Shown: positions 5,732 to 49,868, counted from the stretch's first letter. The stretch is DNA of 64,000 bases from Nitrospirales bacterium (GCA_965223295.1 CBDCWC010000002.1:512001-576000), one strand, 5' to 3'. Numbers and translations: made by a program. Notes: a model not told the origin generated them from the letters alone.

Positions 5732-5819
5732 CTCTTCTCGATAAGGGCAAACTCATCGTGAGGTGAGGACGCAAAGCCACGGGTCAGCGTGACTGATAGC
5801 CGGGTTACCGAAAGAAGGG
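5732..5819 (+). ncRNA. c-di-GMP-I (GEMM-I) riboswitch, intact
   Basis: CG-ATAAGGGCAAAC-TCATC-GTGA-GGTGA-GGACGCAAAGCC-ACGGGTCAG..CTGATAGCC-GGGTTACCG matches the class I consensus. Equivalents of Vc2 G20, A47 and C92 are present. Confidence 0.92.
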
Positions 5820-5861
5820 AAGACGTGGGGATGAGGCCTTTTTTTGCGAAGGAGGTATCTC

Positions 5862-8800
5862 ATGTCCAACGTTCTATCCCACCCTTTCATTCAAAAGACG
5901 CTAGTTGGATTTGGATTGTTGTTTAGTCTCGTCCTTTTTTCTGCTCCCGTTCAATCTGCCGAAACTCTGCAATGGGATGAGAACACGGAGCCAGATTTAG
6001 CCGGATACATTGTTTATCAAGGTACAACAGCGGGATCCTATGAGACTCCTATAGATGTGGGGAACGTCACAAGCTACACGGTATCGGACCTCGAACCTGA
6101 TACGACGTATTATTTTGCGGTCACGGCTCATGACACGGGGGGGAACGAAAGTGGGCCTTCCAATGAAGTGAGCATACATGTTGCGGCGCCGCCGGACGAC
6201 ACGTCGCCTACAGTGATGCTCACTTCGCCTACTTCAGGTTCGACTCTATCGGGAACTGTCATGTTGCAGGCCGAGGCGAGTGATGATACAGGGGTGGCGG
6301 GTGTACAGTTCAAGATGAACGGGACGAACTGGGGAGCTGAGGACACGACGGCCCCCTATGTTATGGCGTGGGATACGACGACTGTAACGCCAGGGGCCTA
6401 TACGTTGACAGCCGTGGCGCGAGATGCGGCAGGCAACACGGCTTCGTCGATCTCGGTGCAGGTGACCGTGACGGAGACGGAGGGAGGCTCGCGCGTGACG
6501 GCTGGGTTAGTAGCTTTGTATGAGTTTACTGAGGGGGCCGGGGCCACGGTGGCGGATACTTCAGGGATGGGCACGCCGCTAGATTTAACCATTGCAGATG
6601 TAAACGATGTGACGTGGCGACCAGGTGTGGGTGCCCTGCAGGTGAACGCGGAGACCATCGTCAGTTCAGACGGGCCTGCAACTAAGGTGCACACGGCGCT
6701 GATGGCCAGTAACGCGGTCACAGTAGAGGCCTGGGTGAATCCGGCCAATCTGACCCAGAACGGCCCGGCCCGCATTGTGAGCCTCTCGGCCTCACCCTAT
6801 TTGCGAAATTTAACGCTTGGACAGGGGGTGTTTAGTAGTGCAAGCGATCGACTTGAAGTACGCTTGCGGACAAGCAGCACGAGCTTGAATGGAACGCCGG
6901 CGGTTCCGACCGCCGAGGGCACACTGGCTGATAGATTACAACATATGGTCTACACGCGGGATGCCGCGGGCAACGTGAAGATTTACCTGGATAACACCAT
7001 CTTAGCCACGAGCACAGTCGGAGGGGACTTCAGCACGTGGGATACCACGATGCCGCTGGTACTGGCGAATGAGGTGAATGGGGAACGGGCATGGTTGGGC
7101 GAGTATCACTTAGTTGCGATTTACGACATGGCCCTGACGACGGCCCAAGTTACCCAGAACTTCACGGCGGGACCTAGGGGTAAGGGAGGAGCAACAAACC
7201 AAGCGCCGACGGTAACAGCCGGACTGGATCAGGCGGTCACGTTACCAACGGCAGTGACGTTAGATGGGACGGTGACAGATGATGGGTTGCCAACCCCACC
7301 GATGGTCAGCACGCTCTGGAGTGTGACAAGTGGGCCGGGGCCGGTGACGTTTGGGGCGGCGACGTCGGTGGATACGACGGCAAGCTTCACGGTGGCAGGA
7401 GTGTATGTACTGCGGCTGACAGCGGATGATGGTGAGTTGACCGCCTTTGATGAGGTCATGGTGCATATGGCGGCCCCACCAGATGAGACGCCGCCAACAG
7501 TGGCGCTGACTGCGCCGACAGCCGGAGCGACTCTCACAGGGACGGTCACGGTACGGGCCGACGCAAGTGATAATCGAGGGGTTGTTGGTGTGCAGTTCCA
7601 GATGAATGGGACAAATTGGGGAACCGAAGATGCGACGACGCCCTACAGCCGGGTGTGGGATACGTCCACTGCGACGCCAGGAGCCTATACAATCACAGCG
7701 GTGGCCCGAGATGCGGCGGGTAATGCAAGTACTTCAGTGCCAGTGACGGTGCACATTGCGGCCCCACCGGATGAGATGCCGCCAACGGTGGTGCTGACTG
7801 CGCCGACAGCCGGAGCAACTCTCACAGGAACGGTTACGCTGCAAGCAGCGGCGAATGATGATCAAGGAGTCGCTGGCGTGCAATTCCAAATGAATGGGAC
7901 GAATTGGGGCGCTGAGGACACGACGGCACCCTATAGCCGGGTGTGGGATACGTCCACTGCGACGCCAGGGGCCTACACAGTAACAGCTGTGGCTCGAGAT
8001 GTAGCGGGCAATACGGGTACCTCGGCCCCGGTGACGGTGCATATTGCAGCTCCGCCTCCACCGGCACAACTACCAACCCTCACCAGTCCCGAGGTGGGAT
8101 CAATTTTATCAGGGTCGACAATAAAGCTTTCTTGGAATCCGAATACGACCTCAGTCAGTGAGTGGTGGCTGTACGTCGGCAGCAAACAAGGTAGTAAGGA
8201 CATTTTAAATACTGGTTCCATGGCGAGTAGTACGCTCTCTCGGACGGTGTCGAACTTGCCAACGAATGGCCAGCCGGTGTGGGTGCGCTTGTGGTGGAAG
8301 TCGGGAGGAGGCTGGCAGTCAGAGGACTATGCCTATACTGCTGCTAGCGTCACTAACAGCACCCCAGCGATCAGTAGTCCTGCTGCGCAATCGACGTTCG
8401 CAGATAGTACAGTCACATTCAAGTGGACTCCCCACACGACCGCGGTGAGCGAGTGGTGGCTGTACGTCGGCAGCAAACAAGGTAGTAAGGACATCTTAAA
8501 TACTGGTTCCATGGCGAGTAGTACACTCTCTCGGACGGTGTCGAACTTGCCAACGAATGGCCAGCCGGTGTGGGTGCGCTTGTGGTGGAAGTCGGGAGGA
8601 GGCTGGCAGTCAGAGGACTATGCCTATACTGCTGCTAGCGTCACTAACAGCACCCCAGCGATCAGTAGTCCTGCTGCGCAATCGACGTTCGCAGATAGTA
8701 CAGTCACATTCAAGTGGACTCCCCACACGACCACGGTGAGCGAGTGGTGGCTGTACGTCGGCAGCAAAAAAAGTAGCAAGGATATCTTTAACAGTGGTTC

Positions 8801-8939
8801 TATGGGGAGTAGTACGCTCTCCCGGACGGTCTCAAATATACCGACAAACGGCCAGCCAGTGTGGGTACGGCTGTGGTGGAAGACCGGGGGTGTCTGGCAG
8901 TCAGAGGACTATGCCTATACTGCTGCAACTTCTCAATAA
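5862..8939 (+). CDS. large secreted multidomain surface protein (signal peptide, FN3, bacterial Ig-like x3, LamG/ConA-like lectin, PKD-like, three C-terminal Trp-rich repeats)
   Basis: GGAGG RBS at 5851; signal peptide ending VQSA; FN3 (YTVSDLEPDTTYYFAVTA); DTSPTV..ASDDTGVAGVQF..WDT..LTAVARDAAGN repeats; LamG-like TVEAWV..HMVYTRD..IYLD. Confidence 0.85.
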   Translation: MSNVLSHPFIQKTLVGFGLLFSLVLFSAPVQSAETLQWDENTEPDLAGYIVYQGTTAGSYETPIDVGNVTSYTVSDLEPDTTYYFAVTAHDTGGNESGPSNEVSIHVAAPPDDTSPTVMLTSPTSGSTLSGTVMLQAEASDDTGVAGVQFKMNGTNWGAEDTTAPYVMAWDTTTVTPGAYTLTAVARDAAGNTASSISVQVTVTETEGGSRVTAGLVALYEFTEGAGATVADTSGMGTPLDLTIADVNDVTWRPGVGALQVNAETIVSSDGPATKVHTALMASNAVTVEAWVNPANLTQNGPARIVSLSASPYLRNLTLGQGVFSSASDRLEVRLRTSSTSLNGTPAVPTAEGTLADRLQHMVYTRDAAGNVKIYLDNTILATSTVGGDFSTWDTTMPLVLANEVNGERAWLGEYHLVAIYDMALTTAQVTQNFTAGPRGKGGATNQAPTVTAGLDQAVTLPTAVTLDGTVTDDGLPTPPMVSTLWSVTSGPGPVTFGAATSVDTTASFTVAGVYVLRLTADDGELTAFDEVMVHMAAPPDETPPTVALTAPTAGATLTGTVTVRADASDNRGVVGVQFQMNGTNWGTEDATTPYSRVWDTSTATPGAYTITAVARDAAGNASTSVPVTVHIAAPPDEMPPTVVLTAPTAGATLTGTVTLQAAANDDQGVAGVQFQMNGTNWGAEDTTAPYSRVWDTSTATPGAYTVTAVARDVAGNTGTSAPVTVHIAAPPPPAQLPTLTSPEVGSILSGSTIKLSWNPNTTSVSEWWLYVGSKQGSKDILNTGSMASSTLSRTVSNLPTNGQPVWVRLWWKSGGGWQSEDYAYTAASVTNSTPAISSPAAQSTFADSTVTFKWTPHTTAVSEWWLYVGSKQGSKDILNTGSMASSTLSRTVSNLPTNGQPVWVRLWWKSGGGWQSEDYAYTAASVTNSTPAISSPAAQSTFADSTVTFKWTPHTTTVSEWWLYVGSKKSSKDIFNSGSMGSSTLSRTVSNIPTNGQPVWVRLWWKTGGVWQSEDYAYTAATSQ
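8073..8936 (+). repeat. three tandem 291-bp (97-aa) intragenic repeats
   Basis: AGTGGTGGCTGTACGTCGGCAGCAAA recurs at 8161, 8452 and 8743 (period 291). Segment 8161-8451 is nearly identical to 8452-8742. Confidence 0.95.
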
Positions 8940-9500: not shown

Positions 9501-9589
9501 TCTTTTCCCGATAAGGGAAGACTCATTGTGAGGTGAGGACGCAAAGCCACGGGTCAGTACCACTAAGAGCTGGGTTTTCGAATGATGAG
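9501..9589 (+). ncRNA. c-di-GMP-I riboswitch paralog, variant/degenerate
   Basis: Shares GTGAGGTGAGGACGCAAAGCCACGGGTCAG with the first copy, but GGGCAAAC becomes GGGAAGAC and GGGTTACCG becomes GGGTTTTCG. Confidence 0.75.
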
Positions 9590-9628
9590 AAGACGTGGAG
9601 GCGAGGCCTTTCCCCAGGGAGGTATTTC

Positions 9629-10252
9629 ATGTTCAATGTTTACTCGAAACCTTCTATTCAAAAATCCTTGGTTGTATTTGGGTTGTGGTGTGGTCTGATT
9701 CTTTTCCCTGCATCCGTTCAATCTGCCGAAACGTTGAAATGGGATGCGAATACTGAAACAGATTTAGCTGGATACATTCTTTATCAAGGTATAACAGAAG
9801 GGTCCTATGAAACTCCGATAGATGTCGGGAATGTCACAAGTTACACGGTGTCGGATCTTGAACCTGGTATGACTTACTATTTTGCGGTCACGGCTTATGA
9901 TACAGGTGGGAACGAAAGTGGTCCTTCCAATGAAGTGAGTGTATACAATGCGGCTGCCACTTCTCAGCTATCAGTATCTGTGAGTGGTAATGGCATTGTT
10001 GTTAGCAATCCCGGTGGAATCCGTTGTGCAAGTGGCATTTGTTCCGCTTCCTATGAGACTGGTAGCGTCATTTCGTTAACACCTGAAGCCAGTCATAAGT
10101 GGAGTTTTTCTGGTTGGACTGGCGCATGTAGTGGAAGTGGGGAGTGTGTGGTTCAGCTGTCGAAAGACCAGGTTGTGGAGGCTATTTTTTCTAAGACTAG
10201 TCCTGGAGGGGGAGGGAAAGGCGGTGGAAGAGGCGGTGGGCGAAATAAGTGA
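9629..10252 (+). CDS. secreted FN3 + divergent InlB B-repeat-like domain protein, paralog of the 5862 gene N-terminus
   Basis: GGAGG RBS; signal peptide and FN3 closely match the 5862 gene; LSVSVSGNGIVVSNPGGIRC..FSGWTGACSG..CVV; Gly/Lys/Arg-rich tail. Confidence 0.85.
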   Translation: MFNVYSKPSIQKSLVVFGLWCGLILFPASVQSAETLKWDANTETDLAGYILYQGITEGSYETPIDVGNVTSYTVSDLEPGMTYYFAVTAYDTGGNESGPSNEVSVYNAAATSQLSVSVSGNGIVVSNPGGIRCASGICSASYETGSVISLTPEASHKWSFSGWTGACSGSGECVVQLSKDQVVEAIFSKTSPGGGGKGGGRGGGRNK

Positions 10253-35570: not shown

Positions 35571-36713
35571 ATGAAGAATCATGGTATGAATCGAGCAACC
35601 AGTGACGGCATGATGCGGAAAATAAGTCATCTGGGCTTGTTCACTATGATGGCAGGAATGCTCGTTCTGGGGGCTGCGATGGTAGGCCAGGCTGCTTTAT
35701 TGACGAAAGAGGATTTTAATTTTTATGGGTATGTGGAAGCCTCCTACACGCATAATTTCAAAAATCCAAATTCACAGACGAATAATCTGCGTATCTTTGA
35801 TGTGGATGCCAATTCATTTCGGCCGCATCTGGCGCAATTGGTATTTGAAAAAGAAGCAAAGTCAGATGGTGAATTGATCGACCGTGCAGGTTTTCGCACG
35901 AAACTTAATTTTGGTAGAGATGCCCAACTGACTGGAGGTTCAGGGTCGGATGATGTGGATTTTCAGGAAGCTTATATTCAGTACATAGCCACGATCGGTA
36001 ATGGCTTGGATCTACGTATTGGCCGGATGAATACGTTAATTGGCTATGAAGTGATTGAAAGCCCATTGAATCCAAACTTTTCTCGGTCCTGGCTTTTCGG
36101 CCTGGGTGAACCTTTTACCACAACAGGCATTCGAGCTTCCTATCAGTTTACCGACATGGTCGCACTTTCCGTTGGTTTGGTGAATGCGTGGAATGGCGCC
36201 ACTTCAGATTTTAACCGTAGCAAATCGGTTGAAGCCCTACTCGGTCTGACGCCGATGGACTGGCTGAGTGTATCGCTCTTTGGGTTCTGGGGCCCAGAAG
36301 GCGCCGTGGGGGCAAAGAACTCTGATCTTGGTCAAGCAGGTGGGATTATCACAGCCCAGGTTTCAACGCAAACTTCTCTCGTTCTTGAAGGCTACTGGGC
36401 TGAACAGGAAAATGGAGTGGCGGGGAGAGATGCGCAATGGCATGGGATAGCGGGGTACGTGATCCATGATTTTGACGATCAATGGGGGATGCGGCTTCGT
36501 ACGGAATGGTTTAAGGATGCTGATGGGTTTCTCACTGGAAGGGATCAAAAACTTTGGGAGGGAACCATCACCGCTCAATATAAACCTGTTCCCTATTTAA
36601 TTACACGTTTAGAATTTCGTTATGACAAATCAAATCGCAAGTCTTTTCAATATGGAGCGCGTCGGGTCGATCATCAAGAAACGCTCGCCACTGAAGTGAT
36701 TTTTCTTTTTTAA
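35571..36713 (+). CDS. outer-membrane beta-barrel porin (BBP2/OmpL-like)
   Basis: Signal peptide; FYGYVEASY, FQEAYIQ, IGYEVIESPLNPNFSRS, RLEFRYD; terminal Phe. Confidence 0.8.
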   Translation: MKNHGMNRATSDGMMRKISHLGLFTMMAGMLVLGAAMVGQAALLTKEDFNFYGYVEASYTHNFKNPNSQTNNLRIFDVDANSFRPHLAQLVFEKEAKSDGELIDRAGFRTKLNFGRDAQLTGGSGSDDVDFQEAYIQYIATIGNGLDLRIGRMNTLIGYEVIESPLNPNFSRSWLFGLGEPFTTTGIRASYQFTDMVALSVGLVNAWNGATSDFNRSKSVEALLGLTPMDWLSVSLFGFWGPEGAVGAKNSDLGQAGGIITAQVSTQTSLVLEGYWAEQENGVAGRDAQWHGIAGYVIHDFDDQWGMRLRTEWFKDADGFLTGRDQKLWEGTITAQYKPVPYLITRLEFRYDKSNRKSFQYGARRVDHQETLATEVIFLF

Positions 36714-36817: not shown

Positions 36818-37225
<408 letters not shown>

Positions 37226-37279
37226 TGAGTATTATTTTTTCTATCTAATCGTCATATGTGATTGTTTGAAGGAGACAGT

Positions 37280-38584
37280 ATGAAGGTATCTCGCGTATTT
37301 CTACAGATAGGGTTGTTCCTAATATTAGTCCTGAGTATAGGGGAATCCTCTCTGGTGTTTGCAGAGGGAGTCGGATTAAAAATTGATACGGGTGATACGG
37401 CCTGGATTTTAATGTCTTCTGCATTGGTCTTATGCATGATGCTCCCTGGATTGGCGTTATTTTATGGAGGATTAGTTCGGAGTAAAAATGTGTTGGGAAC
37501 TATCATGCATACGGCAGTGATCTTATGTTTGATTACGCTAGTTTGGGTGATTTGTGGATATAGTCTCGCGTTTGGTCCTGATATCGGCGGCGTGATTGGA
37601 AGCTTAGCTTGGGTAGGGTTGCAAGGCGTTGGTATGGATCCCAGCCCAGATTATGCTTCAACGGTTCCTCATCAAGTATTCATGGTGTTTCAGCTCATGT
37701 TTGCAGCGATTACCGTTGCTCTTATGACAGGGAGCTTTGCTGAGCGCATGAATTTTAAAGCATTACTTATATTTTCAGTTGCATGGTCCGTGTTTATTTA
37801 TTCGCCATTAGCGCACTGGGTATGGGGTGGAGGTTGGTTACAACAAATGGGGGCTTTAGATTTTGCGGGAGGGGCGGTTGTACACATTAGTTCTGGGTTC
37901 GGTGCTTTGGTTGGTGCCCTGATGGTTGGTCCTCGCAAAGGATTTGGAAAAGAGCCGATGCCACCACATAATTTACCTATGACTGTATTGGGAACTGGTT
38001 TATTGTGGTTTGGATGGTTTGGATTTAATGGGGGGAGCGCCTTAGGTGCCAATGGCGGAGCCGGAGTGGCCTTTATTGCCACGCATATCGCAGCAGCGGC
38101 TGGTGGGTTAAGTTGGATGGCGGCTGAATGGGTGCATCGAGGCAAACCTACTGTTCTGGGAATCGCCAGTGGGATTATTGCTGGGTTGGCCACCATTACT
38201 CCAGGAGCCGGATTCGTCGGGCCCATGGCAGCGATCATCATTGGTCTTGTTGCTGGGACGATGTGTTATGTCGCGGTTGTCTGGAAAATGAAGTTAGGCT
38301 ATGACGACTCGTTGGACGTCGTGGGCATTCATGGGGTCGGCGGTCTAATAGGTATTCTGGCAACAGGGCTCTTTGCATCTGTAGGGGCAACAGGTCTGTT
38401 TTTTGGGAATGCGGACTTGTTCGGTATACAAGTCTTTCTGGCTTTGGTAACCTTAGCGTTTTCAGTTGTGGGTACCTATCTTATTCTCAAAATTGTTGAT
38501 CTGACAATTGGTCTTCGCATATCCCCGCAAGACGAAGAAATGGGCTTGGATTTGAGTCAACATAGCGAACGAGCCTATTCTTAA
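37280..38584 (+). CDS. amtB: ammonium transporter
   Basis: PGLALFYGG, FQLMFA, DFAGGAVVH, WFGWFGFNGGS, DDSLDVVGIHG. Confidence 0.96.
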   Translation: MKVSRVFLQIGLFLILVLSIGESSLVFAEGVGLKIDTGDTAWILMSSALVLCMMLPGLALFYGGLVRSKNVLGTIMHTAVILCLITLVWVICGYSLAFGPDIGGVIGSLAWVGLQGVGMDPSPDYASTVPHQVFMVFQLMFAAITVALMTGSFAERMNFKALLIFSVAWSVFIYSPLAHWVWGGGWLQQMGALDFAGGAVVHISSGFGALVGALMVGPRKGFGKEPMPPHNLPMTVLGTGLLWFGWFGFNGGSALGANGGAGVAFIATHIAAAAGGLSWMAAEWVHRGKPTVLGIASGIIAGLATITPGAGFVGPMAAIIIGLVAGTMCYVAVVWKMKLGYDDSLDVVGIHGVGGLIGILATGLFASVGATGLFFGNADLFGIQVFLALVTLAFSVVGTYLILKIVDLTIGLRISPQDEEMGLDLSQHSERAYS

Positions 38585-38672: not shown

Positions 38673-40082
38673 ATGACCCCGAAAGAAGTATTGGATTTTG
38701 CCAAAAAGAACAAGGTAGAAATGGTTGACCTGAAATTTATTGATTTGGTTGGAACATGGCAGCATTTTTCAATACCAACCTCAGAATTATCCTTGGACTT
38801 ATTTAAAGAAGGGTCCGGTTTTGATGGTTCATCAATTCGTGGATGGAAGGCGATTCAAAACAGCGACATGTTGATGGTGCCGGATCCAAATACCGCTCGT
38901 TTGGATCCCTTTACGGAGATTCCCACGCTCAGTATGGTTGGAAATGTTCAAGATCCCATCACCCGTACGATTTATGAACGCGATCCCCGCGGCGTGGCTA
39001 TGCGAGCCGAGCAATATCTTAAGAGCACCAAGATTGGTGATACTTCCTACTGGGGGCCTGAAGCTGAATTTTTTATTTTTGACCATGTGAGTTTTGAACA
39101 AAATAGCCATTCCGGTTATTACTTTGTGGATTCGGAAGAAGGTATTTGGAATTCAGGAAAGGATGGAGAAAATTTGGGGTCTCGACCTCGGCACAAGGAA
39201 GGGTATTTTCCTGTTTCCCCCGTGGATTCCCAGCAAGATATTCGTTCAGAAATGTGCCGAGAAATGGAAAAGGCGGGTATTCGAGTTGAAAAACATCATC
39301 ATGAAGTGGCCACGGCGGGTCAAGGGGAAATTGATCTCCGCTTCGATACGCTCCTCAAAATGGCGGATCAGATGATGATGTATAAATACATTGTCCGCAA
39401 TGTGGCTCGTCGTCATGGGAAAACAGCCACGTTTATGCCGAAACCCGTTTTCGGAGACAATGGCACAGGCATGCATACTCACCAAAGCATTTGGAAAGGA
39501 GGTAAGCCAAATTTTGCTGGAAAAGATTATGCCGGTGTGTCACAACAATGCTTGTATTACATTGGTGGGATTCTCAAGCATGGTCCAGCCTTAGCCGCGT
39601 TAACGAATCCAACAACAAATTCCTATAAACGGTTAGTGCCAGGGTTTGAAGCTCCCGTGATGCTGGCCTATTCCAGCCGTAACCGTTCAGCGGGGATTCG
39701 AATTCCGATGTACTCCCCAAGCCCCAAAGCCAAGCGGATCGAAGTGCGATTCCCCGATCCTTCTTGTAATATGTATTTGGCGTTTAGCGCGATGTTAATG
39801 GCAGGGTTGGATGGCATTCAAAATAAAATTCATCCGGGTGAAGCCATGGATAAGAATCTTTACGATTTAGAGCCTGAAGAATTAGGCAATATTCAAACCT
39901 TGCCGTCGAATTTAGAAGATGCTTTAGATAACCTTGCCAATGACTATGAATTTCTCTTGAAGGGTGGAGTCTTCAGTGAAGATTTAGTTGAGGCGTGGAT
40001 TACCTATAAACGAGACAATGAAGTGGATCCCATGCGTCTCCGTCCGCATCCCCATGAATTCTTCATGTATTACGACGTGTAA
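38673..40082 (+). CDS. glnA: glutamine synthetase type I (adenylylatable)
   Basis: [34 protein letters not shown], adenylylation site NLYDL. Confidence 0.98.
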
Positions 40083-40168: not shown

Positions 40169-42424
40169 TCACTGTTGACTTGAGAATCGCCAAAGAAACC
40201 GTTCATGAATCTGCTTCATTCGTGAATGCGTCGTTTTTTCAAACGCTTCCGCACTTTTTTGCCAGTCTCTTGACGTCATGCCCAAACGGCGAGCCAAGAA
40301 TACCATTTCATCAGATCCCGAAGGAGGCAGCACTAAGTCTTTGGCATGTCCCCGCACAATTCGCAAGCCATCAATGAGTTGCCGAAGAAAGATATAGTCA
40401 TCATGTAACGTTTCTCTCTCTGATAATGTGAGAATGGATTCGTGACAAAGTTGTTCAATGGCTTCTAGTGTATTGGGTGTTCGAATTGAAGGATGAGCAT
40501 GGCCATGTATCAGTTGGAGATATTGAACGGTATACTCCACATCGATGAGCCCGCCAGGGCTGTACTTGACATTCGTCGCACCAGGTTGAACTAATTCGGT
40601 TATTTGGCGTTGACGCAGATTGAGCGCAAGACCTAAATCCCACGGGTCTGGCCCATACACGAACTGATTTCTATGGGTTTCAACAGCTTTTCCGACGCGA
40701 GAGTTTCCAGCAATGAAACGAAGCTTGATGAAGGCTTGCCGTTCAAATGGGGCGGCCCCTCCCTGACTGCGATAATACTGTTGAATTTCTTCTACGGTGT
40801 TGGCCAATGTGCCTTTGTCACCATTCGGACGAAGCCGGGTATCGATATGAAAAATACCTTCCTGTTTGGCTTCGATCCATTGCAGAAATTCTTGTGCCCA
40901 TCGTTCAAAAGTATCGGCGGACATTCGAACAATGTTCCGTTTCTCAGTGCGTTGAGGATTGGCGTAGACAAATAAAATTTCAATATCTGACGCATACCCC
41001 AGTTCGCCTCCACCTAATTTCCCTAACCCAAAGATCGCCATGGGAATCGAAGAGGTCCGTGAGGCTTTAGGCTGAATCACTCGATATGATTGTTCGAGTG
41101 CATGATTCAGGATGACATCAGCCAAATTTGTTAAGGCCTGGGAAAAATCGTGAAGAGAACTATTTTCTAAAAGGTGCCGCATATCGATACGAAAAAGTTC
41201 TTCATCTTTCACTTGATTTAAACGCTGCTTTCTTTGCGCAATGGTTTTTGCCGGCAGCAAAGCTTTTTCGAGACTTTTGCTTAAAGTCGTTTTTGAGCGA
41301 ACCAACGATCCTTTTTGATACCGCTGCATCATAGGCAATAGGTTGTCATGCTGACGGCGTAGTAAGTCTTCCCACAGATAGTCGCTGCTTCCAAACAGTT
41401 GAGCCAGGTTTCCCATAGTGGATCCTTTACTCAAAATGGCAAGGGTAGCCCCCTTTTTCGGTTGCTCTAATAATTGATCGAGAAATTGATCAAAATGATC
41501 CAGAGCTTTTCCGGGGTCAGGAGCCCAACTTAAATAATGCGTGAATTCTTTTAATAAGACGGCAGCCGTTCGTAGTTCTTGTTGTTCCTGTTTACGTAAA
41601 ATTCTTCTTCCATGGCGGTCGTGAATGTAGAGACGATTCAAGACTTGTGTGCCTTTGACTTCAATTTTTGCTTTCACCAAGTAAATGCCTCGCATGGCCA
41701 AGGCATTTGCAAATGTATATAAAAAGGCAGGCGTATCAGTTGAGCGAATATCCAAAATAGTATTCGGAGAAGATGCACTGTTCGAAAAGGTAAGATGAAC
41801 GGGATGGAGTAAATCAACGGTTTTTCTTTTTCCTTTTTCCATATGTTCAATGAGTCGGCGGTTAACAGAACGACGAGCCTGGCGTACCTGATTCTTCTGT
41901 AACAAGAGGAGAAGAGAGACCAACATCTGTTGGAAGTCTTGTTGAACAGATCTCTCAAATGGAGAATCTTTTTTCGCTTGGACTTCAAAGACGTCGACTG
42001 CGATTTTCCGAGATAATCGTCCTGATGACCGTCGTACAGGGAGGGATTTCCAGGCCTGCAAGGTTTTTGATCTGTGAATGGGTACAGGTGGTGCGGCAGA
42101 GGTTGGAGTAGAGGTAAAAATGGCTGCCTCTCGTATGTCCAGCCCAAACGAGGCAAGTATGCCGCAGAGAGTGGCAAACTCAGAAAAATAATCGTAGGCG
42201 ACGATGTGAATATGATAGCGCCGCGATGGAAGTGTGTTGATGGTCAACGCACAAGTTTGTTCGAACGTGAGTTGATGGACCATGTTTGCATGTTGGCTTA
42301 TGACCTCAGAAGAAAATTGCTCTAAATAATCTTGGTCCATTTGCGTGATATAGTCTTGGAGAAAAGAGGAGGGTAAATGAGGAGACAGTTGTTCGAGGCG
42401 TTCAATGAGGACAGAGGAATTCAT
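40169..42424 (-). CDS. glnE: GlnD-type ACT-ACT module fused to a GlnE adenylyltransferase-like domain
   Basis: ACT1 IVAYDYFSEFATLCG..IREAAIFT; ACT2 IRSTDTPAFLY..; GKLGGGELGYASDIE, IDTRLRPNG, VKYSPGGLIDVEYTVQ. Confidence 0.85.
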   Translation of the reverse strand: MNSSVLIERLEQLSPHLPSSFLQDYITQMDQDYLEQFSSEVISQHANMVHQLTFEQTCALTINTLPSRRYHIHIVAYDYFSEFATLCGILASFGLDIREAAIFTSTPTSAAPPVPIHRSKTLQAWKSLPVRRSSGRLSRKIAVDVFEVQAKKDSPFERSVQQDFQQMLVSLLLLLQKNQVRQARRSVNRRLIEHMEKGKRKTVDLLHPVHLTFSNSASSPNTILDIRSTDTPAFLYTFANALAMRGIYLVKAKIEVKGTQVLNRLYIHDRHGRRILRKQEQQELRTAAVLLKEFTHYLSWAPDPGKALDHFDQFLDQLLEQPKKGATLAILSKGSTMGNLAQLFGSSDYLWEDLLRRQHDNLLPMMQRYQKGSLVRSKTTLSKSLEKALLPAKTIAQRKQRLNQVKDEELFRIDMRHLLENSSLHDFSQALTNLADVILNHALEQSYRVIQPKASRTSSIPMAIFGLGKLGGGELGYASDIEILFVYANPQRTEKRNIVRMSADTFERWAQEFLQWIEAKQEGIFHIDTRLRPNGDKGTLANTVEEIQQYYRSQGGAAPFERQAFIKLRFIAGNSRVGKAVETHRNQFVYGPDPWDLGLALNLRQRQITELVQPGATNVKYSPGGLIDVEYTVQYLQLIHGHAHPSIRTPNTLEAIEQLCHESILTLSERETLHDDYIFLRQLIDGLRIVRGHAKDLVLPPSGSDEMVFLARRLGMTSRDWQKSAEAFEKTTHSRMKQIHERFLWRFSSQQ

Positions 42425-42431
42425 GATGCGA

Positions 42432-42482
42432 AGTATACTGAAAAAAATTGTCGTTGTAAGGTCTAAAAGAGTCTCGTATAAT
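42432..42482. promoter_or_regulatory. overlapping divergent sigma70 promoters between the two glnE half-genes
   Basis: Plus: TTGTAA(42454)-N17-TATAAT(42477). Minus: CTTACA(42460-42455)-N17-TATACT(42437-42432). Confidence 0.6.
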
Positions 42483-42493
42483 CTGCTTTCTTC

Positions 42494-44137
42494 ATGAAAT
42501 CCTCATCGACTCGGCACATCTCAAAACACACCAGTAAAAAGGTAAAAACGCAGGTCATTTTTCCTGATCCAACTCCAATCCTCCTGGCCTCTGATCTTGC
42601 TCCACAAAAGGTCGCACAGTTGCTACAAGCTTTCGGGATTCAGGATTGGAAACGGGCCGATTTGAATCTTCAAGCGATGGCCGGCGAACCGAATACACGC
42701 AAGATCTTAGCAGATTTTCTTCCTTCTCTTTTGGCGACCGTGGCGAAGACCGCTGACCCTGATCAAGCTTTGAATGAATGGGAACGGTATGTGGATTCTG
42801 GCATTCACCGCCTCCAATTGTTTCAGTATTTGATAGCGGTCCCTCATCTTGTTGAGGTGTTAGGGACGGTGTTTGGCAACAGTCAAGCGATGGCACAGAC
42901 GCTCATCCGAGATCCACTCTTAGTGTATTGGATTGAAGATGACCGAGTCTTAGTCCGACGGCAAACACGATCAAATTTGTCAGGGTCGATACAAACGGTA
43001 CTGGCAGGAGTGAAGAGCTTTGAGGGTAAATGCGAAGCCTTGAGACGATTCAAACGACGGGCAATGCTTCGCCTTGGCATTCGTGATCTGCTTGGTATTG
43101 CTACTCCCATTGAAACGTATACAGCACTATCGGATGTAGCCGCAGGGGTGATTCAGGCCGCGTATGAACTTGTGGAGCAAGAGCTCCAGCGGCAGCATGG
43201 GGACTGGGGGGAGCAAACCCCTATGAAAAGGAAAAAACGAATAGGTTTTTCTGTGCTGGCCATGGGAAAACTTGGTGGGTGGGAATTAAATTATAGTTCA
43301 GATGTTGATCTGATTTATGTCTATCAGGCTCCAGAAAGCAATACGAACGCAGGAATAGGGCAGCGGTCTCTCTTAGGTTCAGATTATTTTCATGCTGTAG
43401 CCAGAGAACTGACGAATGTGTTGTCTGCTTCAACGGCCGAGGGAGCTTTGTTTCGAGTAGATATGCGTTTGCGTCCGGAAGGGCAGGTCGGGGCATTAGC
43501 CTGTTCGGTAGAAGATGCCTGTCATTATTATCAAACACGGGGGCGAACTTGGGAACGTTTAGCATTCTTAAAGGCCAAGCCTATTGCAGGGGATATTCGA
43601 ATAGGGCAATCACTCATCCGAAAATTGGGAAAATTTGTGTATGGAGGCCCTGACACCGCTCCTCAGGTCTTCTCAGAGATTCGTGTTCTTCGTTCTCAAA
43701 TGGTGTCCAAAATGACTCGTAAAGGAGAGCTGCAACGCAATGTAAAGTTAGGCACGGGCGGTATTCGGGAAATTGAGTTTATCGTGCAAAGTCTTCAGTT
43801 GCGGTGGGGCTATCGGTATAGCAGTATTCGTGACAGGCAAACGCTCAAAAGTTTATTGAAGTTGGTGAAGGTTGGAAAACTGAAAACGGAGGTCTTTCAG
43901 CAATTGAAGGAGTCTTATATATTTTTGCGAAATCTTGAGACAAAAATTCAAATGGTTCACGAGATTCAAACGCACTTGTTACCTGCGAAAATTGAAGAGA
44001 TCGCTAAATGTGCCATTCGAGTGGGCTACCCCAAAGAAGATAACGTCAAACAGACCGCTGAGCATTTACTGATAGATTACCGTGGGCATACCCTAAGAGT
44101 TCACCAGCTTTACCGACAAATTGTCAAAGCGTCTTAG
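42494..44137 (+). CDS. glnE: stand-alone GlnE N-terminal (adenylyl-removase-like) domain protein
   Basis: LRRFKRR, AMGKLGGWELNYSSDVDLIY, FRVDMRLRPEG, WERLAFLKA, VKLGTGGIREIEFIVQ. Confidence 0.85.
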   Translation: MKSSSTRHISKHTSKKVKTQVIFPDPTPILLASDLAPQKVAQLLQAFGIQDWKRADLNLQAMAGEPNTRKILADFLPSLLATVAKTADPDQALNEWERYVDSGIHRLQLFQYLIAVPHLVEVLGTVFGNSQAMAQTLIRDPLLVYWIEDDRVLVRRQTRSNLSGSIQTVLAGVKSFEGKCEALRRFKRRAMLRLGIRDLLGIATPIETYTALSDVAAGVIQAAYELVEQELQRQHGDWGEQTPMKRKKRIGFSVLAMGKLGGWELNYSSDVDLIYVYQAPESNTNAGIGQRSLLGSDYFHAVARELTNVLSASTAEGALFRVDMRLRPEGQVGALACSVEDACHYYQTRGRTWERLAFLKAKPIAGDIRIGQSLIRKLGKFVYGGPDTAPQVFSEIRVLRSQMVSKMTRKGELQRNVKLGTGGIREIEFIVQSLQLRWGYRYSSIRDRQTLKSLLKLVKVGKLKTEVFQQLKESYIFLRNLETKIQMVHEIQTHLLPAKIEEIAKCAIRVGYPKEDNVKQTAEHLLIDYRGHTLRVHQLYRQIVKAS

Positions 44138-45843: not shown

Positions 45844-48444
45844 ATGAATCCTAATGAAATGACGATAAAGCTCCAAGAAGCCTTACAAACCGCCTCGGGG
45901 TTGGCGATGCGGCGGAATCATCAGGGCATCGACGTTGAACATTTGTTGGTTGCCTTATTGGAGCAAGCTGATGGTTCGACCATACCGATTCTTGAGCAGG
46001 CAGGAGTCTCTCCAAAATCTGTCGGTAATGCAGCAGAACAAGCCCTTCAAAAAATTCCTCAAGTTCAGGTCAGTGGCTCGGCGCCTGGTCAAGTCCATTT
46101 GACGCCCAGACTCGGCAACGTTTTGAGCCAGGCCGAAAAAGAAATGAAGGAGCTTAAAGATGAATACCTCAGCGTAGAACACATCTTGTTGGCTATGGTT
46201 GAAGAAGGCGGTGTATTTAAAGCCTTAGGGCTCAAGCGGGAAAAACTATTAGCGGGTCTTCAGCATGTGCGAGGCAATCAACGCGTAACAAGTCAAGACC
46301 CTGAAGGCACCTACCAATCTTTAGAGAAGTATGGACGAGATCTTACGCGATTGGCCAGTCAAGGGAAGTTGGATCCTGTCATTGGCCGTGATGAAGAAAT
46401 TCGTCGAGTGATTCAAATCTTGTCCCGGCGTACCAAGAATAATCCAGTCTTAATCGGTGAACCTGGCGTAGGGAAGACGGCGATTGTTGAAGGTTTGGCC
46501 CAGCGAATTATCAAAGGTGATGTTCCTGAGGGCCTGAAACAAAAACGTGTCGTGGTCTTGGATATGGGAGCTTTGGTAGCAGGTGCAAAGTTTCGAGGAG
46601 AATTTGAAGAACGTTTGAAAGCCGTGCTGAAGGAAGTGCAAGCTTCGCAAGGCCAAGTGTTACTCTTTATTGATGAATTGCATACCGTGGTCGGAGCTGG
46701 TGCAGCGGAAGGAGCCATGGATGCTGCTAACCTTTTAAAGCCCATGCTCGCTCGTGGCGAAATGCATTTAATTGGGGCGACTACTTTAGATGAATACCGT
46801 AAGCATATTGAAAAAGACGCGGCGTTGGAGCGGAGGTTTCAGCCGGTTGTGGTCGATCAACCTTCGGTAGAAGACACCATTTCAATTTTACGGGGCTTGA
46901 GAGAGCGCTATGAAGTGCATCACGGGGTACGTATCAAGGATTCGGCGTTGGTCGCCGCGGCCAGGTTGTCTCATCGATATATCAGTGACCGATTTTTGCC
47001 AGATAAGGCCATCGATTTGATTGATGAATCGGCGGCTCGATTAAGAACGGAGATCGATAGCATGCCAGCTGAGATGGATGAGATCTCCCGAAAAGTGTTG
47101 CAGCTAGAAATTGAACGAGAAGCCTTAAAAAAGGAAACAGATTCTGGAAGCCAGACGCGTTTAGCGAATTTAGAACAAGAACTCGATAGTAAACAACAGA
47201 CCTTGGCTGACCTGAAGGCTCAATGGGATGCTGAGAAATCTTCAGTCGGCAAACTACAAGAGTTGCGGCAGTCCATTGAAGAAATAAAGCAGAGCATTGA
47301 ACAGGCTGAACGAAACTATGACCTCAACAAAGTAGCAGAATTGCGGTATGGAGAATTGCCGCGTTTAGAAAAGGAAATGCAGGAAGAGGAAGAGCGCCTG
47401 ACCAATAAAAATCAGGAAAATCGCTTGTTGAAAGAGGAAGTCGACGAAGAAGATATTGCCGAAGTCGTGAGTCGTTGGACAGGTATTCCGATGAATCGTC
47501 TGATGCAGGGGGAGATAGAAAAGCTCCTTCATTTAGACGACCATTTACATCAACGTGTCGTAGGTCAAGACGAAGCCGTCCGAGCTGTGGCGGATGCCGT
47601 ATTACGCGCCAGATCTGGCATAAAAGACCCGAATCGCCCCATTGGCTCCTTTTTATTCCTAGGTCCGACTGGAGTAGGGAAGACGGAGTTGGCGCGTTCG
47701 CTTGCCCATACACTTTTTGATGATGAATCTAATTTGGTGCGGATCGACATGTCCGAATATATGGAAAAACATACGGTGGCCAGATTGATCGGCGCACCTC
47801 CAGGGTATGTGGGCTATGAAGAAGGCGGCCAGTTGACCGAAGCCGTTCGACGGAAACCCTTCTCAGTCATTTTGTTTGATGAAATCGAGAAAGCGCATAA
47901 TGATGTATTTAATGTGCTACTTCAAGTTTTGGATGATGGGCGTTTGACAGATTCTCAAGGACGAACAGTGGACTTTAAAAATACCGTGCTCATCATGACA
48001 TCTAATTTAGGCAGTCAAGAGATTTTGGAAGCGCAGCAGCGTGATATGGATTATGAAGGAATCCGCGCAGTGGTGCTTCGAGAAATCCAACAACATTTCC
48101 GCCCGGAATTCTTAAATCGAGTTGACGAAGTCGTCGTCTTCCATCCCTTGACACAGAAAGAGTTGGGACCAATCGTAGAAATTCAATTAGAGCGATTACG
48201 ATCTCGTTTGGCAGATCGGCAGATGACCTTAGAGCTGACTCCGGCAGCGGTCGCAGAATTGGCCGAGCGAGGATATGACTCGGTCTATGGTGCCAGACCC
48301 TTGAAACGGTTGATCCAACAGGAGATCGAGACGCCCCTGTCGCGCCTGATTATTCAAGGCAAAGTTGTGGATGGTCAAACCATCATAGGCGATCTCATCG
48401 ATAGCAAGTTTGTGCTGCACGCCAAAGAGACCACTGAAACATAA
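45844..48444 (+). CDS. clpB: ATP-dependent chaperone ClpB
   Basis: [21 protein letters not shown]-domain coiled coil, [23 protein letters not shown]. Confidence 0.97.
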
Positions 48445-48764: not shown

Positions 48765-49868
48765 TTAATTAACAGCTTGGAGAGTGATGGTAACAGTGCG
48801 TTTTTTGTTATTACGGCGAAGCCCAACTTTGATTCTGTCACCAACATTGTGACGATCCAATATAGTCGCGAGATCGTCGAAATTGTTCACTGGAGCGCCA
48901 TCTATTGAAACAATGATGTCTCCTAATCGAATTCTTCCAGAGCGAAGTTCTTCGAGACTTTTCAAGCCTGCTTTTTCTGCCACGCTGCCCGGTAGGACAC
49001 GGGCGATGATGATTCCTTTGACTCCCCAACGATTGGCAATGGAGTCTGGTATGAGAGAAATGCCCAGGCCGGGTCGAATGACTTTTCCATATTGAATGAG
49101 TTGCGGCACGATGCGCTTGACGATGCCGACAGGTACCGCAAAGCCAATTCCTGCAAAAGCTCCGCTAGGACTCATAATTTGGGTGTTGACGCCAATCAGT
49201 TTTCCCGAACTATTGAGGAGTGGGCCACCGGAATTGCCGGGATTGATTGCAGCATCGGTTTGAATCGCACCTTCAATAGTACGATTGTTTACCGATTTAA
49301 TAGAGCGGCCTAGGGCACTAACCACTCCTGTGGTTAGAGTATGATCCAGCCCAAATGGATTCCCTATGGCTAAAACTTGTTGGCCCACGAGCAGATCGAT
49401 TGAGTTACCAATGTCGAGGGGTGTGAGTTGATTTTTAGGAACCTTGATCTGTAAGACCGCTAAATCGTGATCGGGATCTGCGCCAATGACTCGAGCGGCA
49501 TGTGTGGATTGATCGTCTAGAATGACTTGAATAGAATCGGCCCCATAGACAACATGATAATTTGTGACAATGTGCCCTCGAGTGTTCCAAATAAATCCAG
49601 AACCAGAACCTTGAGGTACTTCAAATGTATTTAAAGACCAGAAATCCCTTCGAAGGGCGGTGTTGGTAATATACACAACCGACTTTGCGGCTTTTTCAAA
49701 GACGGCAATCGTATTGCGTTCTTCGGTGCTCAGCGATTGATTGGCAGCCAAGTGCACAACGGAGGAAAGCTCTTTATCCAGTATTGAAGGTGTTTTAGCA
49801 TTGGCGGGGAAGCATATAAATCCCATAAAGAGGATAAGAATATAACATTGGGGAGTTGGAGTATTCAT
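48765..49868 (-). CDS. htrA: HtrA/DegP-family serine protease (trypsin + PDZ)
   Basis: GSGSGF, TNYHVV, DLAVL, QTDAAINPGNSGG, single PDZ. Confidence 0.9.
   Translation of the reverse strand: MNTPTPQCYILILFMGFICFPANAKTPSILDKELSSVVHLAANQSLSTEERNTIAVFEKAAKSVVYITNTALRRDFWSLNTFEVPQGSGSGFIWNTRGHIVTNYHVVYGADSIQVILDDQSTHAARVIGADPDHDLAVLQIKVPKNQLTPLDIGNSIDLLVGQQVLAIGNPFGLDHTLTTGVVSALGRSIKSVNNRTIEGAIQTDAAINPGNSGGPLLNSSGKLIGVNTQIMSPSGAFAGIGFAVPVGIVKRIVPQLIQYGKVIRPGLGISLIPDSIANRWGVKGIIIARVLPGSVAEKAGLKSLEELRSGRIRLGDIIVSIDGAPVNNFDDLATILDRHNVGDRIKVGLRRNNKKRTVTITLQAVN

Follow-up and report, generated by a model that had tools for sequence, protein, structure and literature searches.

Split GlnE in a Nitrospirales bacterium: a divergent pair of single-module genes, one encoding a GlnD-like ACT pair

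Adenylylation of glutamine synthetase (GS) by GlnE, under the control of PII and GlnD, is a textbook covalent-modification cascade, which to our knowledge has been studied in detail almost exclusively in Proteobacteria and Actinobacteria. The canonical enzyme (E. coli b3053, 946 residues) holds an adenylyl-removing (AR) module and an adenylyltransferase (AT) module in a single chain (structures 1v4a and 3k7d, respectively), each composed of a PF03710 and a PF08335 domain. How is this switch built when the two module types are encoded by separate genes? The question is raised by a 64,000-nucleotide stretch of DNA from a Nitrospirales bacterium (GCA_965223295.1, CBDCWC010000002.1:512001-576000; here called the window), whose genome comprises 3.78 Mb in 3 contigs and is 100% complete. 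Unlike canonical GlnE, the modules here lie on two polypeptides encoded by divergent genes: P0001, a protein of 751 residues (40169-42424, minus strand), and P0002, a protein of 547 residues (42494-44137, plus strand). In addition, the module of P0001 is preceded by about 290 residues of GlnD-type linker and tandem ACT domains, which E. coli GlnE lacks. Together, the two genes probably encode the halves of a GS adenylylation switch, in which P0002 would be the eraser and P0001 the writer, the latter equipped with an ACT sensor that is likely to respond to glutamine.

The two GlnE modules

The listing of open reading frames (ORFs) and their translation confirm that the two genes lie on opposite strands, 69 base pairs (bp) apart. 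Each protein contains exactly one PF03710 nucleotidyltransferase (NTase) domain and one PF08335 (GlnD_UR_UTase) helical domain, both over the Pfam cut-offs of 24 and 21 bits, respectively. In P0001, these domains occupy residues 339-582 (40679-41410, minus strand; 139 bits) and 617-742 (40199-40576, minus strand; 59.7 bits); in P0002, they occupy residues 122-373 (42857-43612, plus strand; 217.1 bits) and 409-543 (43718-44122, plus strand; 85.1 bits). An initial annotation of the locus had described just such a pair of divergent single-module genes, and the motifs that it quoted are all present: ELNYSSDVD (264-272) and KLGTGGIREIEF (418-429) in P0002, and ELGYASDIE (474-482) and GGLIDVEY (624-631) in P0001. 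The two are the sole GlnE-family genes over cut-off in the whole genome. Both score under the cut-offs of all three NCBIfam GlnE equivalogs, NF008292, NF010706, and NF010707 (487, 724, and 625), with values of 180.2, 153.2, and 197.2 for P0001 and 308.1, 396.9, and 291.5 for P0002, and the only PDB entries that match either protein by sequence are 1v4a and 3k7d.

Column mapping places P0001 residues D480, E482, and D528 opposite E. coli D701, D703, and D752, and P0002 residues D270, D272, and D323 opposite E. coli D173, D175, and D223. By this alignment, the catalytic carboxylates of canonical GlnE are kept in both proteins, and they are conserved in the family of each. On the AT side, the D-x-D of canonical GlnE is D-x-E in P0001, and this is the conserved state of its family: among 35 standalone P0001 homologs, conservation of the motifs G-K-x-G-G, S-D-I-E, and D-x-R-L-R-P is complete or no lower than 90%.

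The type of the P0002 module is clear from sequence comparison. In an unrooted tree of 88 modules, which resolves into three clades, P0002 falls in a clade of 38 modules together with the N half of E. coli GlnE (Shimodaira-Hasegawa-like approximate likelihood ratio test (SH-aLRT) support of 97), a clade that also takes in the N halves of the fused GlnEs of Nitrospirota and the non-ACT-linked modules of fused relatives. Consistent with this placement, P0002 covers positions 63-438 of the E. coli GlnE model, which has 946 positions; its scores are 174 bits for 1v4a (AR) and 150 for 3k7d (AT), and its GGIREIEF motif is identical to that in 1v4a. Thus, P0002 is an AR-type module by these comparisons, as initially annotated.

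The assignment of P0001 is less direct. Its module falls in a clade apart from that of P0002, made up of 43 modules that we term post-ACT (support of 100, stem of 0.6). Because three unrooted clades cannot assign the post-ACT clade to a side, nine GlnD NTase regions were added as an outgroup. With this outgroup, the post-ACT modules join the canonical C (AT) halves (SH-aLRT of 98 under LG+C20), and the same split is recovered in an LG+G4 tree. In the five columns that separate AR from canonical AT modules, the post-ACT majority has the AT state in two, the AR state in none, and a state of its own in three.

The strongest argument for P0001 being the AT is one of complementarity. Besides an AR enzyme and a GS that keeps the target Tyr, the genome encodes a single further GlnE-type enzyme, P0001. 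An AR enzyme needs an AT partner, and all fused relatives consist of exactly one AR-clade module and one post-ACT module, so P0001 would be the partner of P0002. The GS in question is the type I product of the neighboring glnA gene (38673-40082, plus strand; PF00120, 455.7 bits; PF03951, 98.3 bits). Its target, Tyr397, lies within an NLYDL motif (395-399; codon 39861-39863), as the initial annotation had noted, and GS type I with Tyr397 is also the substrate presumed for both this pair and canonical GlnE.

Several observations weigh against an AT assignment. An approximately unbiased (AU) test under LG+G4 keeps the alternative in which post-ACT modules group with AR modules (p 0.286). P0001 scores 98.7 bits against the E. 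coli AR structure 1v4a versus 78.6 against the AT structure 3k7d, and the Foldseek template modeling (TM) scores are likewise 0.80 versus 0.71. The best NCBIfam stretch of P0001 falls on the N half of the model PRK14109, and in some fused GlnEs of Nitrospirota P0001 is matched by the N half at least as well as by the C half (in genome G051, 156.5 versus 150.9 bits, with the halves read from strand order). The E. coli structures were set aside as a discriminator between AR and AT for P0001, being ambiguous by both sequence and fold. An AT-type module is favored by the rooted trees and by complementarity but is not secure; this part of the initial annotation stands in its grouping with canonical AT halves, while the AU test leaves the alternative in place.

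The ACT pair of P0001

Residues 19-286 of P0001 match positions 617-843 of the 850-position GlnD model TIGR01693 (84.5 bits against a cut-off of 519.4, E 5e-24). When a profile of the 35 standalone homologs is compared with one of nine GlnDs using hhalign, positions 13-287 of the P0001 family are collinear with GlnD 651-886 (probability 99.8%, E 2e-28, 235 columns), a block that takes in the helices before the ACT domains, ACT1, the inter-ACT helix, and ACT2. In this part of P0001, D78, G88, D230, F234, and L235 do not vary among the 35 homologs. The N-terminal helical piece (residues 1-50; 42275-42424, minus strand), predicted as helices from residue 3 to 50, is collinear with the GlnD segment that precedes ACT1. 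ACT1 itself (residues 58-176; 41897-42253, minus strand) is delimited by predicted secondary structure and local confidence, by hhalign, and by VIA-align, and ACT2 (residues 209-298; 41531-41800, minus strand) by BLASTP against the GlnD of the same genome, by the model, and by hhalign. The identity of ACT2 to residues 817-892 of that GlnD is 27% (E 5e-8), indicating an old acquisition rather than a recent copy.

Structure prediction agrees with these alignments. An AlphaFold 2 (AF2) model of residues 1-330, made with 68 sequences, has a mean predicted local distance difference test (pLDDT) of 89.2 and a predicted TM score (pTM) of 0.87, and contains two beta-alpha-beta-beta-alpha units, the same pair that is present in the GlnD tail. 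In VIA-align, the top structural match is the ACT region of aspartate kinase (Z 9.9, root mean square deviation (rmsd) 3.8, 158 residues), followed by the regulatory domains of threonine dehydratase (Z 7.9) and by single ACT-like domains (Z 6.5, rmsd 1.8, 79 residues). With the N-terminal model alone, the sole Foldseek match is the ACT-like N-terminus of a mycobacterial large glutamate dehydrogenase (E 1e-5). The full-length model (pLDDT 87.1, pTM 0.82) suggests that the ACT domains and the AT module are packed together in a fixed arrangement.

There are points on the other side. No Pfam ACT model is over cut-off in P0001, where the only match is PF24931 (ACR/GlnD-like ACT) with 15.5 bits against a cut-off of 27; in two relatives, P0128 and P0130, PF01842 (ACT) does pass, with 29.1 and 38.6 bits. 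The usual loop Gly is replaced in both domains, which read DYFSEF (ACT1) and DTPAFL (ACT2) in place of the D-x-P-G-L-L of GlnD. ACT1 also contains an insertion of about 35 residues (roughly 105-140; 42005-42112, minus strand), which is rich in Pro, Ser, and Arg, is modeled with low confidence (pLDDT 37-61), and has no GlnD counterpart. Finally, GlnD-type ACT domains are not known to have any established glutamine-binding residues, and the mutants in PMC11190351 were inconclusive. Taken together, the alignments and models indicate that the first 290 or so residues of P0001 are homologous to the GlnD linker and ACT-ACT region and have a predicted tandem ACT fold, in agreement with the initial annotation. 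Unlike GlnD, P0001 has neither a GlnD-type NTase nor an HD domain in Pfam.

Glutamine sensing by this pair is plausible by analogy. GlnD is reported to possess one glutamine site and to be regulated by glutamine (PMC4285133), and its glutamine response is said to need the ACT domains (PMC11190351, citing Zhang et al. 2010). A GlnD/ACR-like ACT module joined to another enzyme, as in P0001, is also found in the Chlamydomonas alpha-amylase AMA2 and in the plant ACR proteins, the latter called GlnD-like (PMC12702975, PMC3173338). The N-terminal ACT domain of AMA2 is described as needed for activation by glutamine, with point mutants that did not define the site (PMC11190351). AMA2 differs from P0001 in its unrelated catalytic domain and its single ACT domain, and both AMA2 and ACR are eukaryotic.

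Architectures, GlnD, and the surroundings of the pair

Matches to P0001 are found in 144 of 201 sampled Nitrospirota genomes. In 42 of these, all belonging to the class of the window, the match is full length in a frame of 740-950 residues with an AR gene of 540-590 residues alongside; the remaining 102 have one fused ORF of about 1040 residues without the ACT region. The pair is not an artefact of this assembly (the initial annotation had argued from the divergent orientation against a frameshift), since the same divergent pair is present in all five relatives that have both genes on one fetched locus and in 33 of the 80 loci discussed below. Two further genomes of the class (G112 and G108) have GlnD and no match to either GlnE half, which fits the remark in PMC9239080 that some lake (freshwater) Nitrospira lack glnE.

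Beyond the phylum, a search of 1.84 billion representative sequences gave 9076 matches at E 1e-3 or below. Among the best 150 of these 9076, the ACT region is present in 142, examples being confirmed by Pfam, and absent from 8, which are partly fragments. The 142 comprise 66 proteins of the order ACT-AT-AR, 45 of the order AR-ACT-AT, 30 with ACT-AT alone, and one odd case. A scan of GTDB species genomes gave at least 598 pattern matches; among the matches listed, 133 were ACT-confirmed and 80 loci were kept, for which the labels of metagenome-assembled genomes (MAGs) may be wrong. These 80 include 33 split, divergent pairs (29 from Nitrospirota, 1 from a Nitrospinota-labelled MAG, and 3 from Acidobacteriota), plus one similar locus (L055); 3 split pairs in tandem on one strand, from Candidatus Entotheonella; 34 fused AR-ACT-AT genes, from Anaerolineae (including Anaerolinea thermolimosa), Caldilinea, Chloroflexia, Planctomycetia, Thermoanaerobaculia, and Fraserbacteria; 5 fused ACT-AT-AR genes, from Desulfobacterales, Spirochaetales, and others; and 4 loci with ACT-AT and no AR in the locus, two of which are cut by contig ends. 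Thus, an AR-clade module accompanies ACT-AT, in the same chain or as a separate gene, in 76 of the 80.

The fused proteins, known from database sequences only, contain the same ACT-AT unit, with 30-36% identity over nearly its full length, and the same AR-clade partner, often with glnA adjacent. Those of the order AR-ACT-ACT-AT, such as the proteins of A. thermolimosa, Caldilinea, Planctomycetaceae, and Thermoanaerobaculia, are single polypeptides of about 1200-1300 residues, and the MAGs of Desulfobacterales and Spirochaetales encode the permuted ACT-ACT-AT-AR form, also as one polypeptide; Nitrospiria and Acidobacteriota have two divergent genes instead. Fusion of ACT-AT to AR in one order or the other extends over about eleven phylum labels and is commoner than the split form, which counts against the initial annotation's view of the eraser as an independent protein; the chimeric writer, too, is not peculiar to this genome. 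Frequent fusion in both orders suggests, by analogy, that the halves act jointly and not as independent enzymes. In their main groups, the trees of AR and AT modules (65 rows) are in agreement, with a split-divergent clade supported at 98 in both, indicating that the two genes have been inherited together.

In the three Entotheonella loci (L056, L057, and L058), the AR gene immediately precedes the ACT-AT gene, with both on one strand. The sister group of this form in the AT tree is the divergent split clade (support of 96), and its appearance is that of an AR-ACT-AT gene that has been divided or of a precursor of the fusion. In Tautonia sociabilis GM2012 (L102, 5737-8274), the ACT-AT protein adjoins PII and amtB, and a search of the whole genome found one GlnE module only, with no AR and no GlnD over cut-off. 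From its sequence, this protein would be a writer without a known eraser. A hybrid origin, in which the AR of Nitrospiria would come from the canonical N half of the phylum and the ACT-AT unit would have been acquired, was considered: split-form AR does group with canonical N halves in a quick AR tree (SH-aLRT of 95), but the AU test does not reject one clade comprising every ACT-associated AR module (p 0.323), and this origin was therefore dropped.

The window contains no glnD in any of its 64,000 nucleotides, as initially annotated, and from this a rewired switch had been proposed. That proposal does not survive at the level of the genome, where a full-length glnD with NTase, HD, and ACT domains is present on another contig (718 bits against the TIGR01693 cut-off of 519.4) and PII retains Tyr51, numbered from its internal Met. 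With both present, nitrogen sensing in this genome can be explained without the ACT pair, and the classical route through uridylylated PII (PII-UMP) may still act here; this too weighs against assigning the sensing role to P0001. GlnD is found in 29 of the 42 split-form Nitrospirota genomes. The other 13 show no GlnD, and they consist of 12 of the 18 genomes of one genus, at 99% completeness (G027, G036, G044, G052, G100, G104, G144, G162, G168, G174, G183, and G189), and G124. A link between the ACT form and loss of GlnD within Nitrospirota was considered and rejected, since 87 of the 102 genomes with fused canonical GlnE, from other classes, have GlnD, a difference from 29 of 42 that is not clear-cut, and related genomes are not independent. 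Outside the phylum, GlnD is over cut-off in one of five ACT-GlnE genomes (Entotheonella) and was not found in A. thermolimosa, T. sociabilis, a Thermoanaerobaculia MAG, and a Spirochaetales MAG. Among 61 sampled genomes of Anaerolineae, the class of A. thermolimosa, none has GlnD over cut-off, and at least 12 carry the ACT form; in 12, nothing matches the GlnD tail except an ORF of 1182-1292 residues, the ACT-bearing GlnE. So, judging from gene content, the ACT form operates alongside GlnD in some genomes and in its absence in others, and the two are present together in this genome.

The pair stands at the end of a row of nitrogen genes on the plus strand. PII (GlnB/GlnK-type; 36887-37225; PF00543, 109.9 bits) is encoded by an ORF that as listed opens at TTG 36821, with the likely start being the Met at residue 23, and its translation keeps Tyr51, as the initial annotation had stated. 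It is followed by the ammonium transporter gene amtB (37262-38584; PF00909, 425.1 bits) and by glnA, whose end is 86 bp from the end of the P0001 gene. Upstream of this cluster lies a gene for an OmpL-like beta-barrel porin (35571-36713, plus strand; PF07642 BBP2, 223.6 bits), and in three related loci (L023, L024, and L041) a second amtB replaces the porin gene at that end of the row. Among the 80 loci, glnA is inside the fetched region in 24, PII or amtB in 16, and glnD in 4, and the target Tyr is kept in every one of the 22 adjacent GlnA ORFs with 400 or more residues. The 69-bp spacer (42425-42493) contains back-to-back σ70-like sequences at 42454-42482 (plus strand) and 42460-42432 (minus strand). 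These are consensus matches only, and with 4 sites found against 6.2 expected in the region, the scan gives no evidence of function. A search with the σ54 consensus gave 40 matches against 33 expected, with none in the relevant intergenic regions.

Farther along, downstream of P0002, are ordinary genes for a ClpB-type chaperone (45844-48444, plus strand) and for an HtrA-like serine protease with a PDZ domain (48765-49868, minus strand). In a distant part of the window, two matches to the cyclic di-GMP-I riboswitch (5737-5813, RF03167, 70.9 bits; 9506-9582, RF01051, 39.4 bits; both plus strand) each sit just upstream of an ORF that resembles a surface protein. One of these ORFs (5844-8939; 1031 residues), with Big_7, Laminin_G_3, and PKD domains, is located where the G+C content reaches 59%, compared with about 46% elsewhere, and the other (9533-10252) bears an fn3 domain.

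A proposed switch and its alternatives

The comparisons above establish the architecture, the homologies and folds, the retention of catalytic residues, and the conservation of pairing and synteny; from these, we infer the substrate and direction of each activity, the ligand of the ACT pair, and any binding of the two proteins to each other or to PII. In the proposed scheme, P0002 would phosphorolyse AMP from Tyr397 of GS and so reactivate it, and P0001 would adenylylate the same residue and inactivate the enzyme. The GlnD-type linker and tandem ACT domains, packed against the catalytic module of P0001 as one compact protein, would serve as an allosteric sensor of a small molecule, most likely glutamine, that tunes AT activity, such that high glutamine would turn GS off. 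The two genes would share the 69-bp divergent control region beside glnA, amtB, and glnB. Precedents exist for some of these features. Truncated halves of E. coli GlnE are said by Jaggi et al. (1997) to keep their separate activities. Engineered uAT enzymes, which are N-terminally truncated GlnEs, also have an AT module without AR in the chain, as does P0001, and such AT-only truncations are reported to adenylylate GS unidirectionally in vivo (PMC9249168). Unlike P0001, they are laboratory constructs that lack both an ACT sensor and a separate AR partner.

The arrangement can be read in other ways. P0001 and P0002 might form an obligate complex equivalent to canonical GlnE and steered by PII and PII-UMP, with the ACT pair as a secondary input or as a docking or linker piece in place of the central regulatory region of the E. 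coli enzyme. We think this doubtful, although it agrees with the complete GlnD and the PII Tyr51 of this genome, with the GlnD of 29 of the 42 split-form genomes, with the congruence of the AR and AT trees, and with the usual tethering of the halves, in which the ACT pair lies exactly between AR and AT of one polypeptide in 34 of the 80 loci and the AR module follows AT in 5. It is harder to reconcile with the ACT-form genomes that show no GlnD, namely the 13 of 42 within Nitrospirota (12 in one genus), at least 12 among the 61 GlnD-less Anaerolineae, and the A. thermolimosa, T. sociabilis, Thermoanaerobaculia, and Spirochaetales genomes. PII-UMP, therefore, cannot be a universal input, though unmodified PII could still act in such genomes. 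A predicted complex of P0002 (40-547) with P0001 (296-751) had an ipSAE of 0.00 in two runs, giving no verdict either way. Rather unlikely, in our estimation, is that the ACT pair senses another metabolite, such as a different amino acid or, indirectly, 2-oxoglutarate, or that it only mediates oligomerisation. ACT domains bind many ligands, the nearest solved folds are those of aspartate kinase and threonine dehydratase, and the altered loops and the ACT1 insertion set the pair apart from GlnD. Yet it is specifically with the GlnD tail that all 235 columns are collinear, the only Pfam match is to the ACR/GlnD-like ACT family, and the product pathway of the enzyme ends in glutamine. Glutamine is also reportedly an allosteric effector of canonical GlnE, according to Jiang, Mayo and Ninfa (2007).

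It is very unlikely that P0001 acts on a different protein, for example on PII, as a nucleotidyltransferase of the GlnD kind that lacks the HD domain. Database records name P0001-type proteins variously as "hypothetical", "GS adenylyltransferase", "ACT domain-containing protein", and "[protein-PII] uridylyltransferase family protein", and the last of these names, found in some NCBI records, would suit such an activity. So would the domain parts (NTase, PF08335, and ACT-ACT), which are those of GlnD minus HD and in another order, the long stem of the post-ACT clade, and the T. sociabilis protein, whose gene adjoins PII and amtB in a genome where no AR was found. However, the NTase domain that scores 139 bits against the GlnE model contrasts with only 21.5-23 bits for the GlnD of the same genome, canonical AT halves are the group that the module joins, an AR-clade module accompanies it in 76 of the 80 kept loci, whether fused or as a separate gene, and glnA with its target Tyr is adjacent in many. 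As a tentative extension of the proposed scheme, which we regard as possible but not likely, ACT-AT and AR together could constitute a glutamine-sensing GS switch complete in itself, independent of both GlnD and uridylylation of PII. It would be the main covalent control of GS where GlnD is missing (Anaerolineae, Thermoanaerobaculia, many Planctomycetes, and a large Nitrospira genus) and would run parallel to the GlnD-PII route in the present genome, with the split, fused, and permuted forms as interchangeable wirings of one sensor-writer-eraser device.

The split ACT-GlnE design is a real, widespread, and conserved variant of a known system, and it is apparently unstudied. No description of a split GlnE or of a GlnE with ACT domains was found in the literature searched, a search that lay outside subscription papers and supplements. 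Two adjacent genes of N. moscoviensis are given as "GlnEB", without comment at that point, in PMC6131200. The pair thus represents a natural variant in which writer and eraser are separate proteins and the writer has the sensor tail of GlnD, conserved across the nitrite-oxidizing Nitrospirales. If the ACT pair does sense glutamine, a sensor-enzyme acting in one step would take the place of the cascade, the regulation of GS in bacteria without GlnD would be explained, and a simple system would be at hand for separating the opposing activities that are entangled in E. coli GlnE. The design also bears on nitrogen assimilation in key nitrifiers.

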